In this document: positions 7,452 through 57,199 of the stretch, piece after piece
Layout of the letters: every line of letters starts with the position of its first letter
Position numbering within the stretch: the first letter of the stretch is position 1
Origin: an uncultured delta proteobacterium
Lineage (GTDB): Bacteria; Myxococcota_A; Polyangia; Haliangiales; Haliangiaceae
DNA length: 64,000 nucleotides
NCBI GenBank assembly: GCA_963848295.1
Contig: CAWKDB010000010.1
Coordinates: 3,648,001-3,712,000 of the forward strand
Direction of reading: 5' to 3'
Made by a program: the position numbers and the translations under genes
The notes under the pieces: model-generated
Databases searched by the model: none
Seen by the model: the letters and a program-made list of their open reading frames with translations, nothing else
Told to the model about the DNA's origin: nothing

Positions 7452-9324
7452 CGCCGAGCGCGACGAGCAACGCGACGACAAACAGCACCGCGAGGATCCA
7501 CGGCGGGATCGCCTTGGCCGGTTGCGCCGCAGCGGCCGCCCAATCGATCGCGTGCGGATATTGGTCGCCGACCGGCGACATCAGATTCGCCGCCGCCTTC
7601 GGATCGCTGGCCGGGACCTGCGCCCGGCCAGCAGCGCTGCCGAATGGCAGCGCGGTTGGATCGATGCTGGGCTCGAACACAGGTGCGCGCTGCGGTGGCG
7701 GGGTATTGCTCGGCGCGAGATCGCTCGACCACGGCCGACCGCCGGCCATGACCGGGTAGGGTGACGCCGGGCCGGGCGGATACGAGCCGGGTGGCTGCGA
7801 CGGTCCCGCGCGCTGCGGCGCCCCGTCGTCCGGGGGGCGCGCGACCGGTTGACTCGCGGTCTGCGCGCGAGCCGGGTCGACGATCTCGCCGCCGATCTGA
7901 GTCGGCGCGAGCGCCGGCTCTTGCTGGGTCTTGCGCTGGACCGCGGGGCGCGGGCCGCTCGGTCGATCGAGGCGCACCTGGGGACCGGTCGGCGGCGCCG
8001 GCAATGGCGCGGGGCCGCCGGTGATCGAGCCGGTCGGCACGCGCATCGGCTGGGGGGTGTGGCGCGCGGCGTGGGCCGCGTCGAGCTCGCGCACCTTGTC
8101 GAGCGGGTTGGCCTCGATCCGCGTGCGGTCGGCGGGGATCTCGTCTTCGTCGTCGGGGTTCCCGATGCCGGCCACGACCTCCTCGAGCGACGCACTGCCG
8201 ACCGAGATCTCCATGACGTCGCTGCTCTCGAGATCGAGCGACTCCTCTTTGTCGCCGCCGAGGTTCACGGTCTCGGCCTTCTTGTCGTCGTCACTCCAGC
8301 GGATGCCGGTGTCGACCGAAACCTCGCGGCCCGAGATCAGCTCGCGCATCCGCTCGCCGTGCTCTTCGATCTCTTGCTTGAAGTACTGATCGAAGAACCG
8401 CGACAGCTCCGCCGGACCCGAACCTTTGCCGCGATGGTGCAGGTACCCGAGCATCGCGTCGCCGAACGCCTCTGCGGTCGGATAGCGCTCGTCCTTGTCC
8501 TTCGCGACGGCCTTGAGCACGATCTCGTCGATCGCCGGATCGAGCTCGTGGTTGATCGCCGACGGTGCCGGTACCGCGCATTCGATCACGGCTTGATAGG
8601 TCTCGTATGCCGACCCTCGCTTGAACAAGCGCTTGCCGGTGAGCAGCTCGTGCACGATCACGCCGAGCGCGAACACGTCGGTGCGGCGATCGACGTTGGT
8701 CGCGATGCATTGCTCGGGCGACATGTACGCGAACTTGCCTTTGATCGTGCCGGCCTTCGTCTTGGTCTCGCGCAGCTCGGCGCGGGCGATGCCGAAGTCG
8801 ACGACCTTGACGATCCCCTCGAAGCTGATCACGAGGTTCTGCGGCGAGATATCGCGATGCACCATGATCAGAGGCTTGCCGTTCGCGGTCCGCTCGTGCG
8901 TGTAGTGCAGCCCGGCCGCCGCTTGGGCCGCGATGTTGAGGATGAGCTGGGTCGGCAAGCGGCCACCCGCGAGCCGCTCGTTCGTGCGCCGCACGATCAT
9001 CGCCAGCGACAGGCCGGCGAGAAACTCCATGACCATGTAATAGCGGTTCTCGTGCTCGCCGAGCTCGAACGTCTGGACGATGTTCGAGTGGTCGAGCATC
9101 GCCGCGAGCCGGGCCTCGTCGAGAAACATCGACACGAAGTCGGCGTCGTCGGCGAGGTGGTCGTGCAGGCACTTGACGACGACGTACTTCTCGAACCCCG
9201 CCGTGCCGCCGATGCGCGCGAGATAGATCTCGGCCGTACCACCGAGCGCGAGTAGCGCCAGGATCTCGTACTTGCCTAGTCGCTTGCCGAGCAGCGACCC
9301 GGCCCCGGCCGGAATCCCGGACAT
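7420..9324 (-). CDS. Ser/Thr protein kinase with Pro-rich linker and C-terminal TM helix
   Basis: VVKCL, HRDISPQN, DFG and YMSPEQ motifs; hydrophobic C-terminus. Confidence 0.92.
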   Translation of the reverse strand: MSGIPAGAGSLLGKRLGKYEILALLALGGTAEIYLARIGGTAGFEKYVVVKCLHDHLADDADFVSMFLDEARLAAMLDHSNIVQTFELGEHENRYYMVMEFLAGLSLAMIVRRTNERLAGGRLPTQLILNIAAQAAAGLHYTHERTANGKPLIMVHRDISPQNLVISFEGIVKVVDFGIARAELRETKTKAGTIKGKFAYMSPEQCIATNVDRRTDVFALGVIVHELLTGKRLFKRGSAYETYQAVIECAVPAPSAINHELDPAIDEIVLKAVAKDKDERYPTAEAFGDAMLGYLHHRGKGSGPAELSRFFDQYFKQEIEEHGERMRELISGREVSVDTGIRWSDDDKKAETVNLGGDKEESLDLESSDVMEISVGSASLEEVVAGIGNPDDEDEIPADRTRIEANPLDKVRELDAAHAARHTPQPMRVPTGSITGGPAPLPAPPTGPQVRLDRPSGPRPAVQRKTQQEPALAPTQIGGEIVDPARAQTASQPVARPPDDGAPQRAGPSQPPGSYPPGPASPYPVMAGGRPWSSDLAPSNTPPPQRAPVFEPSIDPTALPFGSAAGRAQVPASDPKAAANLMSPVGDQYPHAIDWAAAAAQPAKAIPPWILAVLFVVALLVALGVTIVIAKIVR

Positions 9325-9360
9325 CAGGGCAGATCATACCCCGAAGCGGCGCGCGCGGGC

Positions 9361-10146
9361 CTAAACCGTGGTCGTGGTCGACGACGTTGACGTGAACGGC
9401 GACGTGGACTTGATCGGCGCAGCCCGCCTGGCGGGTACTGCGAACACGCTAATCGGGCCGCCGCGAAGATACCCGACACCGAGCATCCAGGTGAGCGGCG
9501 CGGCGATCGCGACGCGTTCGTATCCTCTTGGATAGAGGCTAGTGCGCCACCGCGGCGCGGACCAGCCGTAGAACTGGGCGCCGCTCGAGAACGGATCGAC
9601 ACGGCCGCGGTAGAGCCCGGCGGTGTTGCGATGCTCGCCATGCTTGCGCCAGTTGTTGAGCACGTAGCTGAGCGTATGGTTCGCTTGCGTCGGCGTGCCG
9701 AGGATCTCGACGTGGTACCGGTCGGCAAAGACGCGCCCATGGCGACCGAGCTCGCGATTGAGCTGCTTGGCTGCGGAGATCTTGAAGCTCTGCATGCCGC
9801 GCGCGAGCGAGTCCTTGTTATCGGCCTCGCAGATCATGTGGATGTGCGTGCGCTGCACGCTGAAGTGCACGATGCGGAAGCCAAGCTGGCTGAACGCGGT
9901 CACGACAAGCGCGCGGCGGATCGCGCGATAGGCCTTGTCCGTGCGCAGCCCTGCCGCAGCCGCGACGACGCGCAACGTGATGTGGAGCGGCTTGCTCGGA
10001 TCGAGCGCGGCACGTCGCGCATGGGTGACACCAGCGCGCAGCCCCTTCGGCTTGCGCCCGGCGCCCGGTCGTTTGCCGCCGCGGCGCTGCCCGTTCTTGT
10101 CGAACCTCGGAAACGCCATCTGACGATTACGCAAAGGTAACCCCAT
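9361..10146 (-). mobile_element. REP-associated tyrosine transposase (RAYT-like, HUH/Y1 family), intact
   Basis: HITLR, HUH motif FSVQRTHIHMI, VFADRYH, and catalytic Tyr helix LSYVLNN. Confidence 0.85.
9368..9415. repeat. Degenerate hexamer tandem repeat at the RAYT 3' end
   Basis: GTGGTC GTGGTC GACGAC GTTGAC GTGAAC GGCGAC GTGGAC TTGATC. An imperfect inverted copy lies at 12320-12361. Confidence 0.55.
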
Positions 10147-10153
10147 GAATCAT

Positions 10154-10182
10154 ATGCTACATCCCGTCGACAATCATGTCAA
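10154..10182 (-). promoter_or_regulatory. Sigma70-type promoter of the RAYT gene (leaderless)
   Basis: Minus strand TTGACA (10182-10177), 17 nt, TAGCAT (10159-10154), 7 nt, ATG (10146). Confidence 0.75.
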
Positions 10183-10202
10183 TTGATTCGGCATATATAT
10201 GA

Positions 10203-10561
10203 GGTGGCAATCCAAGGGGGCTTGACGGCTGCGTCCCTGCCTGCGGACGATGACGCTCGCGCGGACAGCCGCTCGCGCTGTCGATCGAGGTCCTCGCTAT
10301 CGATCGTTCGCGGCTGACCTCGCTCACCTGGATGGCTGCGCCGCGATCGATCGGGATGAGCGCGCGGCGATCGAGTTAGCGGCGCACCCGTCCACATCGC
10401 CGCACAGGCTCTGCTACCAGCTTTTGTTCGGGGACGGAAAGCGGCGCGCCCTCTGCCCTTCGTCGACCTTCAAATCGATCCCATGGAACCAACGATCGTG
10501 GCGTCAGCCCACCAACAGGCTCGGCACGGTCTAAGGTGAGACTGCGCGTCACATCGACGAT
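10203..10561 (+). ncRNA. Candidate structured non-coding RNA or ssDNA element linked to RAYT (copy 1)
   Basis: About 89% identical over 171 nt to 56833-57003. A closing stem encloses two long hairpins, with compensatory and G-U-compatible differences between copies. Transcription is not demonstrated. Confidence 0.55.
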
Positions 10562-10995
10562 CACGCCAAGCGCACGTGCGCGCGGCGATGCAGCAGGCGT
10601 ACGCGCTCGACGACGCCGACAAGGCGAAGGACAAGATCGAAAGGCTCGCGCGGTCGCTCGACGAGAAGCACCCGAGCGCGGTGGGGTCGCTGCGCGAGGG
10701 TCTCGACGAGACGCTGATGGTGATGAGGCTCGGCGTCGGCGCGATGCTGCGCAAGTCGCTCACGACGACGAACCCGATCGAGAGCACCTTCTCGACAGCA
10801 CGCCGCGTGTCGCGACGCGTGACGCGCTGGCCGAGCGGCACGATAGTGCTGCGCTGGGCGCTCGCGGGGACGATGGAGGCCGAGAAGACGTGGTGGCGGC
10901 TGATGGGCAAGGCCAACATCCCGAAGCTCGTGTCGATGCTGCGCCGGCTCGACCTTACGCGTGTGGTGACGTCGCCAGCGAAACGGGCGGCGTAG
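10562..10995 (+). pseudogene. IS256 (Mutator) family transposase, C-terminal fragment
   Basis: SLREGLDETL...LRKSLTTTNPIES...VTRW...LRWALAGTMEAEK. The N-terminal part is missing; the break abuts the conserved non-coding element. Confidence 0.85.
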
Positions 10996-11007
10996 TACAA
11001 CGCGCTC

Positions 11008-12225
11008 ATGCCAGACTTCGTCGCGACGCGAGACCTCCGCATCAACGCGAGCGAGACACCAGACGAGACCGCGAGCTTGGTAAGCGACGGGCTCGCGCTT
11101 CGCGGACTCCCGGAGCTCGAACTCGTCGGCGTGCCGCTCGCGCACGCCAGCGATGGCGCAGTCATCATCAACCACATCGCGGAGTACACTGCGAATCGCG
11201 CGCGCGTTTCCCCAGGCGAACGCGTGGGAGTCGGAGGCCCGCAGCTCCCGGGCGCGCTCGTCGCCCGATTGGTCGCGAGCGAGAACTCGCCTCGCAAGGG
11301 AATCGGCCGGTTCTTCGGCGGCGGGACGCCCGGCCGCCTCCGTATCGAGGAGCCGATCGATGGCATGAAGCCGCTGGCAACGTTGCTGTCGACCGTTCAG
11401 TTGTGGCGCGCGGAGGCGGCGTTCCAGGCCGATGACGACGATCGTGGGGTCACGACGTTACGTGCGGCCATCGACCTGTTCCCGGGGGACCCAGCGCGGC
11501 GCGAAGGACCGAATTTCGGAATCAAGCACAACTGGGAGAATCATCTCGCCTACGCGATGCTCTGCTCTCGCGTCGATGGTGACGAAGCGATCGAATGCTG
11601 GCAGCGAGCCGCCGCTCGGTGCGCGCGATTCGAGGTGGACAAACTCGGCGATACCGTAGCGGATCTCAACCGCCTCGACCGGGACGCTGTGCTCATGCGC
11701 GCTCGGTTGATCGTCGAGACCAATGCGAAGGTGAAGAAGCAGAACGACATCAACGAGCGTCTCGTCACCGCGCCGTCGCCGATCTGGTGTCCAGCCCATG
11801 ACGATACACACACGGCTCGAGCGGCGCGCAAAATGGCGGTAGTGACGCGCGGACGAGTCTACAGCGGCGAGCCGCTGCTTCGCGATCCAGCTCTCCTCGG
11901 GGCCGCAATCGAACTCGTGCTCGCGCACCGCGGGCGGCCGGCCGCACTCCTGTTCGCTACCGCGGACACCGTCGAGCACTGGGAAGGTGGCGCAGACGCG
12001 GCTCCGCTCGTCGACGCAGGCGTCGCATATGGTACGGGCGATCGCATATTGTCGTTCGGGCTTGCATACGTCGCGCGGCTCGTTGCCGGAGAGATGACGG
12101 CCGCCGAGGTGCGTGTCCTATGCGGTCTCAACGGTGATCCGAGCACGCGTGAGTCTGCACTCGCGAAACTGGCCGCCCTCGAAAAGGCCGAGTTCGAGGA
12201 TCAAGTCGCGGCGATCACCGGGTAG
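11008..12225 (+). CDS. Hypothetical protein, probable IS256 passenger gene
   Basis: 405-aa ORF with more A/T-ending codons than neighbouring genes. SDGLALRGLPELEL segment followed by a helical region; no confident family. Confidence 0.7.
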   Translation: MPDFVATRDLRINASETPDETASLVSDGLALRGLPELELVGVPLAHASDGAVIINHIAEYTANRARVSPGERVGVGGPQLPGALVARLVASENSPRKGIGRFFGGGTPGRLRIEEPIDGMKPLATLLSTVQLWRAEAAFQADDDDRGVTTLRAAIDLFPGDPARREGPNFGIKHNWENHLAYAMLCSRVDGDEAIECWQRAAARCARFEVDKLGDTVADLNRLDRDAVLMRARLIVETNAKVKKQNDINERLVTAPSPIWCPAHDDTHTARAARKMAVVTRGRVYSGEPLLRDPALLGAAIELVLAHRGRPAALLFATADTVEHWEGGADAAPLVDAGVAYGTGDRILSFGLAYVARLVAGEMTAAEVRVLCGLNGDPSTRESALAKLAALEKAEFEDQVAAITG

Positions 12226-23519: not shown

Positions 23520-23609
23520 GGTTGTCAAAGTGAACACCGTCCCCAGGTAAGACTCAGTTATTATTGGTGTCCGTCGCCGGCTTCGGTTGACAAGTAGAAC
23601 ACCGTCCCC
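23520..23609. repeat. Pair of 25-nt imperfect direct repeats (REP-like)
   Basis: GGTTGTCAAAGTGAACACCGTCCCC (23520-23544) and GGTTGACAAGTAGAACACCGTCCCC (23585-23609), with a related GGTGTCCGTCGCC between them. Confidence 0.7.
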
Positions 23610-55424: not shown

Positions 55425-56546
55425 CTATTGCGCGAACCGAGCGAGCACGTTCACCAGGCAGCCAAGTGAGCCGTTCAACCGGAAGATCGGCGAGACATCG
55501 ATCGGATGAACCTCGAAGCCCTGGGCCTCGTAGAACTGGATCGCGGCGGCGTCGAGCGCGGGCAGCGCGTAGGTCGGGAGATAGACGACACGCCGGTCAC
55601 CGTGGCGATCGAACAGCGCGTTCGTATACGTGACGAACGAGCCGCCGCCCGCGAGGACGAGCGCCGGCACGCGCACGACGTGGAAGCCGCGCGCGGCGAG
55701 GAGCGCGGCGGCGTGATCGAACCTCCGCGCTTGCAAATCGACATCGTCGAGCGCGAGCTCGGGCGGCGGTGTGCCGAGCAGGCGCATGCCCGCGCGCACG
55801 TCGCCGACGGCGATCGTGTGGTCGTCGAGCGGCATCATGTACATCATGATGTGGTGGCGCGGCACATCGCCGACCTCATCGCCGAGCCACACGATCTCTT
55901 GCGCGAATCGACGGTGGAGCTCGCGCTCGAGCGACGCGCGATCGGCGTCACCGCGACCGGCGTTGCGCGCGGTCAGGTTGACGTCGGCGAAGACGTAGCG
56001 CGGCGTCGCAGCGAGGTCGCCGCCTTCGAACGCGATGTTCGCGATGAGCGGCTCGTGGCCGTAGAGCGCGCGTGCGATCGCGTACGGCGATTCGGCGTCG
56101 CCGGCGCGCGAGGCGAACGGCGTCTCGACTTTCGGCGGCGCGAGGATGTTGCCACCGCCGTCGTCGTCGACCAGCGCGGCGTAGCGGTCGCGCGACCACG
56201 TCGTGATCGGACGGCCGACGAGCACCGCGCGCAGCCGTTCGAGATGCGGAGTGCCGACCGCGCGCAGCTCCGCGAGCAAGCGCTGGAAGTCTCCGGCCGC
56301 GGCGACCTCGACGTCGACCTCGACCTGCGCCGGCAGCGCCGCGAACAGTTGGCGCCACACGCCGAGCGCGACCGGATCGGCACTCGGCGCGTAGTGAATC
56401 GCGATCCTGCGCAACGCCGTGCTCGGATCCTCGGCGACGAGCCGAGTCGAGACTCGCGCGTTGCCGCGCGCGAGCCCGACGAGGACGACGAACGCGGCGC
56501 TCGCGAGCAGGCCCGCGCCGACGCCGCCGAGGAGCTTGCGAAGCAC
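55425..56546 (-). CDS. Agmatine deiminase/amidinotransferase (pentein) superfamily protein
   Basis: WSRD, FEGGD, TYTN, terminal GSLGC; N-terminal TM/signal segment. Start uncertain (GTG 56546 chosen). Confidence 0.75.
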   Translation of the reverse strand: MLRKLLGGVGAGLLASAAFVVLVGLARGNARVSTRLVAEDPSTALRRIAIHYAPSADPVALGVWRQLFAALPAQVEVDVEVAAAGDFQRLLAELRAVGTPHLERLRAVLVGRPITTWSRDRYAALVDDDGGGNILAPPKVETPFASRAGDAESPYAIARALYGHEPLIANIAFEGGDLAATPRYVFADVNLTARNAGRGDADRASLERELHRRFAQEIVWLGDEVGDVPRHHIMMYMMPLDDHTIAVGDVRAGMRLLGTPPPELALDDVDLQARRFDHAAALLAARGFHVVRVPALVLAGGGSFVTYTNALFDRHGDRRVVYLPTYALPALDAAAIQFYEAQGFEVHPIDVSPIFRLNGSLGCLVNVLARFAQ

Positions 56547-56593
56547 GTCGAGGTAACGCCGGTGGGCTGCGCGGTATTCGTGGACGTGCACGT

Positions 56594-56801
56594 GATCAAG
56601 TGGAGGTGATTGTGCCGAACGCTGAAGTGGCAGATCCGCAGCCCGAGTTGGTTGAACGCCGAGACCTGCAGCGCCTTACGGATCGCGCGGTAGGCCGTCT
56701 CGGTGCGCAGCGCGGCGACCGCCGCGGCCACGCGCAGTGTGATGTGGAGCGGCTTGGTCGGATCGAGCTCGGCACGTCGCACGTGCGTGACACCGGCGCG
56801 C
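56594..56801 (-). pseudogene. RAYT-like transposase fragment
   Basis: 69 codons, 50/69 identical to the RAYT at 9361-10146; lacks the start and is cut just after the HLH motif. Confidence 0.88.
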
Positions 56802-56821
56802 GACCCCCGCTGCGTGCGCCG

Positions 56822-57157
56822 GCCTGTGGACGATGCCGCTCGCGCGGACAGCCGCTCGCGCCGCCGATCGAGGTCCTCGCCATCGACCGTCCGCGGCTGA
56901 GCTCGCTCACTTGGACGGCTGCGCCGCGATCGATCGCGATGAGCGCGACGCGATGGAGGTAGCGGCGCACCCGTCCACATCGCGCCACAGGCTCTGCCAC
57001 CAAGACCTCGTCTTCCATTCGTCGATCATTCAAATCGATCCATGGAACCACCATCGTGGCGTCAGGGGTTGTTCGGATTGTGAGCGACCGGGCGCGACGG
57101 ACACTTCGAGCGCAGTCGGGCACCGCCTAAGGTGAGTCCGCGCGTCACATCGAAGAT
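56822..57157 (+). ncRNA. Candidate structured non-coding element linked to RAYT (copy 2)
   Basis: Homologous to 10239-10561, with the same orientation relative to the RAYT and the same stems. Confidence 0.55.
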
Positions 57158-57199
57158 GTGACGAATCATGAGACGTGGACGTCCACGATCGGATCTCTC

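Follow-up and report, generated by a model that had tools for sequence, protein, structure and literature searches.

We found that a long non-coding element, which folds into a conserved three-way junction, lies upstream of a Y1 HUH gene of the RAYT (TnpA_REP) type in the 64,000-nucleotide stretch of DNA analysed here (the window). We favour, with a probability of roughly 0.55, the reading that this junction is the oversized REP-like single-stranded DNA (ssDNA) recognition end of a multicopy, apparently self-copying RAYT-class Y1 element. By analogy with TnpA_REP, the Y1 protein probably binds the tagged strand when it is single, nicking DNA at short sites and rejoining it, and so moves units consisting of the gene plus its end. 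The element is read as an ssDNA recognition structure and not as an RNA partner because it occurs on either side and in either direction of the gene and is also present beside unrelated transposases and integrases. Below, G000 denotes the window's own genome, other G numbers denote other genomes, and L numbers denote loci.

The intact Y1 gene occupies positions 9361..10146 on the minus strand and encodes 261 amino acids counted from the first ATG; PF01797, above its cut-off, is the sole Pfam domain, and Pfam gives no C-terminal HTH. The predicted sigma-70-type promoter of the gene (10154..10182, minus strand; TTGACA, 17 nt, TAGCAT) is the single promoter-like site within 10050-10700, where neither a plus-strand promoter for the element nor a terminator was found. 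A variant of a family-wide motif (10180..10200, minus strand) sits immediately 5' of the -35 box and takes in an AT tract. The preliminary description had noted this tract, which is indeed present, as preceding copy 1; it lies directly upstream of the Y1 gene's own minus-strand promoter. The junction core of copy 1, comprising the closing stems, arm A, and arm B, spans 10239..10409, and its functional form is predicted to be that of the minus strand. A GTAG tag (10414..10417, minus strand), a putative REP-type guide, is located 4 nt 5' of the stem foot. The tail and distal conserved blocks (10418..10557) are devoid of the internal hairpin present in other copies, and the C-terminal remnant of an IS256-family transposase (10576..10995, plus strand) abuts the distal end. 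In copy 2, the core (56822..56992, minus strand) is joined through a deletion to a Y1 gene remnant (56594..56818, minus strand), and a GTGG tag (56997..57000, minus strand) is again situated 4 nt 5' of the foot. Its distal blocks (57001..57172) contain a short terminal hairpin (57143-57163) and an end motif (57158-57172) that recurs after several Y1 genes of the same genome. A 9-bp direct repeat (56579..56587, with its match at 57174-57182) surrounds the copy-2 unit and is a possible target duplication.

Much of what had been described of the two copies is borne out: the repeat has the same orientation at both places and differs at 18 of 171 nt (8 C/T and 1 G/A), hairpin A (10266-10272/10310-10316) and hairpin B (10329-10344/10379-10394) are in place, the G-T pair at 10333 in copy 1 is G-C in copy 2, and the four 3' blocks are present. 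The remnant and the intact protein are related as reported, with 52 of 75 amino acids identical instead of the 50 of 69 given before. The gene at 55425-56591 beside copy 2 has a weak peptidyl-arginine deiminase match, and the unit is apparently inserted at the start of that gene. GTCCACG-type repeats flank several units (window 9361-9420 and 57174-57190; G000:C10 near 261450), and the end of one unit adjoins a gene that we take to be a four-helix-bundle gene. Two families of repeats starting with GGGGAC, with ~50-76 copies each in G000 and one copy at window 23530-23544, resemble the terminal repeats of TIRYTs.

The Y1 protein itself belongs with the RAYT-type enzymes. H92, H94, Y152, N156, and H160 (HUH, Y-x3-N-x3-H) are invariant in all 30 aligned homologues, which were taken from 120 among the matches listed. 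Metal ligands 4 and 8 residues after the tyrosine are also the spacing in TnpA_REP, given the tyrosine position that we assume for that protein. The ligands of TnpA_REP are described as H59, H61, N119, and H123 (PMC3479197), and the best structural match of our protein model is 4ER8, TnpA_REP bound to a REP hairpin (rmsd 2.9, 128 columns). Against NCBIfam REP_Tyr_transpos the window Y1 scores 36.4 bits, under the cut-off of 80, and against the IS200/IS605 class-1 profile NF033573 it scores 21.1 bits, under the cut-off of 55; the catalytic stretch is YVLNNW and not the class-1 Y-x-x-x-x-Q signature. The protein has 2713 database relatives, with no plasmid-borne ones found, and no tnpB was seen next to the Y1 gene. 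Of 90 genus genomes, 88 have Y1 matches, with 1 to 37 per genome; this tally takes in the unpublished genomes G010 and G075, as do the DNA search of 60 relatives and some other genus surveys, and nothing else reported here draws on these two. Five Y1 copies in one genome (L017, L020, L021, L024, and L025) are 97.9-99.4% identical, and their flanks diverge beyond the unit. Such a near-identical multicopy state is IS-like, whereas RAYTs are described as typically single-copy and rarely duplicated (PMC5581495). The most conserved cis-motif of the clade is a 13-nt imperfect palindrome just 5' of the -35 box, present with up to 2 mismatches within 200 nt upstream of 53 of 127 Y1 genes versus none of 1200 control windows; it is possibly an autoregulatory or end site. 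Fast-changing tandem repeats were also observed upstream of other Y1 genes of the clade, either replacing the structured ends or lying between them (L003, L004, L006, L114, L167, and L258).

The element family, which takes in types A and B, 28 complete copies of G107, and others, has a common frame: two closing stems stacked on each other, then arm A after a 2-nt linker, and then arm B after a 1-nt linker. Covariation among homologues is found: across 12 members belonging to neither type A nor G107, two-sided changes affect 7 of the 20 pairs set by hand, and the covariation score is reached by 0 of 500 shuffles, in a control that related rows inflate. Among the G107 copies, one closing pair switches between C-G and G-C in step, as judged by eye. 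The particular compensatory change first proposed, TGCGG/CCGCA in the closing stem of copy 1, does not hold up in the comparison: of 9 cores, copy 1 is the only one with TGCGG, and in 2 other copies TGTGG stands together with the CCGCACAGG variant. The excess of C/T differences, previously taken as a sign of G-U pairing on the plus strand, likewise gives way: of the 7 C/T differences in the aligned core, 2 face a helix G, both private to copy 1, and the excess shrinks over 9 cores (17 CT versus 11 AG), while in the G107 family it turns around (9 versus 16). A search of Rfam 15 gave no match at the gathering threshold for window 9200-11100 or for sets of 14 and 16 loci. We also considered a decayed protein gene and rejected it: the core ORFs have no convincing Pfam match (best E 0.017), the differences are spread across codon positions (5/4/7), and other copies carry 1-nt indels.

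Family searches relied on patterns and descriptors, which miss divergent members. A DNA search for type A gave only noise-level matches in 60 relatives and in plasmids, and one strict metagenome pattern scan gave none. Type A elsewhere was recovered solely via the protein, namely in L208, from another sample, where a type-A copy lies at the same place and the element stops shortly past the tail, and in L047, which holds part of the element. In the viral pattern scan, 1 of 21 matches has the full frame. Two further architectures were noted: multi-armed frames in which the arm unit is repeated several times (L369, L370, L295, and L326), and simpler long-hairpin ends with a TGTGG/CCACA stem (L008-L015 and L013-L025, in two other genomes) that form inverted doublets or flanking pairs.

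The preliminary description had both copies folding alike on the plus strand. Their folds do lie below dinucleotide shuffles (z -2.6 and -3.3), but the reverse strand gives the lower fold in 61 of 62 distinct full-frame elements with RNA parameters, the sole exception being window copy 1, and in 62 of 62 with DNA parameters. This strand also bears the tag. Of 35 Y1-adjacent copies, 32 (9 of 10 sources) have GT[AG]G on the reverse strand no more than 16 nt 5' of the foot, against a background of 7%; on the strand first described it occurs (within 12 nt) in 7 of 62. The distance from tag to foot is 4 nt in the window, more in G107, and less in a few loci. REP tags are described as the guides that TnpA_REP needs for binding and cutting (PMC3479197). 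The loops point to the same strand and to DNA. Among 13 short arms, 10 have three-base loops, and the form C-GNA-G appears in 7 of these 10 on the tagged strand and in 0 of 10 on the other (background ~4%); d(GNA) loops closed by C:G are reported to be very stable in DNA (PMC3201870). The third pair of arm B, where the search pattern allowed only C or T at the wobble position, is A·C in 8 of 12 and A-T in 4 of 12 on the strand first described, that is, G·T or A-T on the tagged strand; a G·T wobble does not tell RNA from DNA. In the window's genome, 12 of 15 copies have the tagged form on the inferred lagging-strand template (p 0.035; 49% for long ORFs), although copies within a genome are not independent, and the replication origin was deduced from gene order and skew. 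The 3 exceptions include both window copies, and the tagged strand is also the coding strand. The likely replication origin is located at G000:C10:2946070-2946340, between dnaA and the next gene; it contains box-like 9-mers, and the GC-skew minimum is ~10 kb off.

The element had been reported as present twice; we found 12 copies of the type-A core in the window's genome. Eleven of the 12 adjoin whole or partial Y1 sequence and are divergent from Y1 every time, and many units of this genome are internally deleted or interrupted. A type B element of the same frame precedes a 47%-identical Y1 gene and also lies near another Y1 remnant. No empty site was found in four DNA contig sets, where the sole joint inside the element corresponds to a deleted copy already present in the genome. 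Unit ends and deletion junctions show no consistent dinucleotide (CT or CC) as a cleavage signature, and many junctions have short microhomology; the ragged ends are compatible with a relaxed two-base specificity and do not amount to proof of it. One complete unit, G000:C2:1374031-1375301, ends in short inverted sequences and is flanked on either side by a 9-bp direct repeat, which is a DDE-like mark, unexpected for a Y1 element; a DDE origin of these ends was set aside, as no transposase with such ends was found in the window's genome. Foreign insertions split two units (G000:C10:262340-263520 and 3444706-3445501); one separates the promoter from the core, and the other sits inside the distal blocks.

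Linkage of the element to this RAYT clade stands, with 39 matches of the arm-B module in 261 Y1 flanks versus 4 in 1200 control windows, whereas the placement relative to the gene is not fixed. These matches lie upstream in the same orientation (16), upstream in the opposite orientation (13), downstream in the opposite orientation (7), and downstream in the same orientation (3), and orientation is not constant among the closest relatives of the window protein. The type-B elements of G000 and G112 are 85% identical, divergent from the gene in the former and co-oriented in the latter. Inverted copies occur on both sides of the gene at L167, L168, L176, L177, and L181, intact genes of G107 and G015 are flanked by inverted copies, and gene-less inverted pairs exist at L174, L178, and L190, those in G107 being ~400 nt apart. 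Long inverted repeats surround the gene at 9 of the 104 loci having both flanks; the flanking inverted arrangement was not seen in the window's own genome. Variable sides, inverted pairs, and gene-less doublets are patterns of DNA ends. A cognate RNA partner is unsupported, since a fixed place beside most genes would be expected and both side and orientation vary: the arm-B module lies within 700 nt at 30 of 152 de-duplicated Y1 loci, selected by protein alone, and the other 122 are without it.

Taken as an ssDNA recognition end, the junction, whose fold, covariation, strand asymmetry, tag, placement, and copy number are observed, suggests the following inferred course of events. The tagged strand would become single, likely at the lagging-strand template, and the Y1 protein would then bind the tag and the junction, as the chemistry of TnpA_REP suggests (PMC3479197). 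The enzyme would nick short dinucleotide sites, possibly distant and on either side, comparable to the CT sites of TnpA_REP, which are described as lying on either side of the hairpin and possibly far away (PMC3479197), and would rejoin the strands via its tyrosine. Gene-plus-end units would thereby move, and ragged, internally deleted derivatives would remain. In the window, the tagged strand is the gene's coding strand, with the structure upstream of the gene's promoter, resembling a left end. The preliminary description had offered an unusually large ssDNA substrate as its second option; the evidence favours that option, on the strand opposite to the one proposed.

The frame is also found away from Y1 genes. 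Pattern searches of 301 and 401 phylum genomes, two overlapping samples, together yielded 18 distinct out-of-genus loci that have either the frame or its 3' half; a further seven matches from the 301-genome search have no 3' module and were treated as chance. No Y1 gene is near any of the 18; at 12 of them, an integrase or a gene of the IS481, IS21, IS66, or IS256 type lies within ~1.5 kb. A frame copy on a viral contig lies 30 nt after an IS21 istB, and plasmid copies lie near IS256 and after a remnant that, judging from its translation, is presumably IS3-like. Five frame-bearing genomes had nothing matching this Y1 clade, which means that the fold can do without this enzyme; the presence of the frame beside DDE transposases and integrases in places without Y1 also speaks against an RNA partner of the RAYT clade. 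The tag type follows the neighbour: GT[AG]G stands beside Y1, and CGTC replaces it in 13 of 22 non-Y1 loci outside the genus (background 13%). GTAG and CGTC are the two known classes of REP tags, and CGTC repeats are described as having no known transposase (PMC3733652). The GT[AG]G-tagged form is likely one branch of an older family with CGTC-tagged members in other mobile elements.

These neighbours bear on the main, if rather unlikely, alternative, which is itself compatible with Y1 binding, namely that the junction is a landing site for a host factor on ssDNA, common to many mobile elements, with Y1 as one user. It could be, for example, a DnaA-box hairpin from which the second strand of single-stranded or circular intermediates is primed in the manner of the ABC primosome. 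The integrase and DDE neighbours of the 12 out-of-genus loci and the IS21 copy are consistent with it. The stem 9-mers, searched with a DnaA box consensus that we assumed, resemble those around dnaA of the window's genome, with one at 1 mismatch in copy 2 and perfect box-like 9-mers in some arms, and some members have an arm repeated several times. On the other hand, the 3' strand of arm B usually has C where the box has T (30 versus 9), as would suit a wobble pair and not a box. In window copy 1, moreover, nothing comes within 1 mismatch of a box, and the 9-mer pattern occurs 279 times in the genome. With a similarly low probability, the ssDNA junction may be a cis-module common to mobile elements of three unrelated chemistries (Y1 HUH, DDE, and tyrosine recombinase), recruiting a host replication factor (e.g., DnaA) to prime or time single-stranded or circular intermediates, with a swappable GTAG/CGTC tag that adapts it to the cognate enzyme.

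The strand bias would also suit an RNA made from the tagged strand, a small transcript starting near the tag and regulating or assisting the neighbouring mobile gene, which we regard as unlikely. The strong preference for one strand goes with a conserved pair that G·U would satisfy, the A-rich hexamer that ends in AT and often stands 7-15 nt 5' of the foot is a possible -10 box, and predicted GNRA loops number 12 on the tagged strand versus 2 on the other in 66 predicted folds. However, the relation to the sense of the neighbouring gene is not fixed, a promoter consensus for such a transcript was not found in the window, three-base GNA loops on short arms are typical of DNA, and inverted pairs and gene-less doublets are a habit of DNA ends.

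It is improbable, too, that the element accumulates in and near mobile elements without being of service to them, either as an independent, non-autonomous repeat or as a favoured insertion target, with the Y1 units of this genome moved partly by a DDE enzyme. Such a repeat would fit the type-A copy that precedes a distant Y1 on a long branch outside the type-A clade (support 100/100), the foreign insertions in or beside several copies, the unit with inverted ends and a 9-bp direct repeat, and the 6 of 18 out-of-genus homologues with no mobile gene nearby. It does not fit the tag type that follows the neighbour, the core that is more conserved than coding DNA between the window copies (89% versus 77%), or the symmetric flanking of genes that recurs across several lineages. 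The partner RNA of ~350 nt first proposed, transcribed on the plus strand divergently from the AT tract as a cognate partner or guide of this RAYT clade, has in its favour the element's constant divergence from the gene in the window's genome and L208 and a T-rich tail 3' of the stem on the plus strand, but is highly improbable given the variable placement and the many loci without the module, the worse fold of the plus strand and the DNA-type GNA loops on the other, the absence of a promoter and terminator in the region searched, an AT tract that varies between genome copies and is missing from L208, where the element stops soon past the tail, and an intact sister Y1 gene at C2:329935 without the element.

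Compared with known systems, the ssDNA recognition end proposed here is closest to that of the REP/REPIN/REPtron systems with TnpA_REP (PMC6006769, PMC3479197), with which it shares the Y1 HUH enzyme, the TnpA_REP fold, and the ligand spacing. GT[AG]G 5' of the structure on one strand, inverted doublets, and gene-flanking repeats are also alike. In contrast to the unbranched REP hairpin of 20-40 bp, the structure is branched and ~100-170 nt long, there are only tens of element copies per genome, and the tag is mostly at least 4 nt from the stem instead of the 0-2 nt described for canonical REPs (PMC6006769). The element would work like the REP end of a REPtron; in size and branching it falls outside the REPs, and its multicopy enzyme departs from the single-copy state of RAYTs. 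In the case of TIRYT/TIRtron and the GTAG/CGTC repeats (Di Nocera 2013, PMC3733652), the two tag classes, CGTC repeats without a dedicated transposase, and Y1 genes flanked by long inverted repeats are alike. Here, one structural family bears either tag according to its neighbour, and neither the C-terminal HTH (by Pfam) nor, at unit ends, the GGGGWSAS terminal repeat motif of TIRYTs is present; the frame motifs were not found in four supplements of PMC3733652.

IS200/IS605 elements (IS608, ISDra2) are similar in their multicopy Y1, their subterminal ssDNA structure, and, tentatively, a bias of the tagged strand to the lagging-strand template. Their precise asymmetric ends at a conserved target tetranucleotide differ from the ragged, often symmetric or variable ends seen here, and the catalytic helix here is of the RAYT type; catalytic signature and end precision both set the element apart from IS200. 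OMEGA RNAs, which belong to TnpB/IscB, are alike as structured non-coding sequence adjoining a gene of the IS200/IS605 superfamily; here, side and orientation are not fixed, most genes are without the element, and there is neither a guide-like variable end nor an Rfam match. The A-site of R6K, an ABC primosome hairpin, is described as a DnaA-box hairpin that loads DnaB on ssDNA (PMC6127211). It resembles the junction as an ssDNA hairpin with a DnaA-box-like stem; the junction is branched and has several box-like 9-mers with a conserved mismatch. The covered sections of PMC6006769, including two supplements, name no myxobacterial group and gave no match for the frame, and within the part of the literature covered we found no description of the frame or of an RNA partner of a Y1 enzyme.

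RAYTs have been described as domesticated enzymes that occur in single copy and act on short hairpins; the origin of REPs and the existence of CGTC repeats without a transposase are named as open questions (PMC5581495, PMC3733652). What is new here is a RAYT-type clade that is multicopy with recent duplicates and associated with a long branched structure, together with one structural family that bears both tags, so that tag-dependent recognition becomes open to a direct test needing a single protein and a handful of oligonucleotides. Should a host replication factor turn out to be recruited by the shared module, insertion sequences and integrative elements would have in it a general cis-signal that has been overlooked. 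If the junction is indeed a module shared among these elements, the self-copying RAYT clade would represent a living intermediate that links IS200 to the domesticated RAYTs, and would show REPs arising from the ends of mobile elements.
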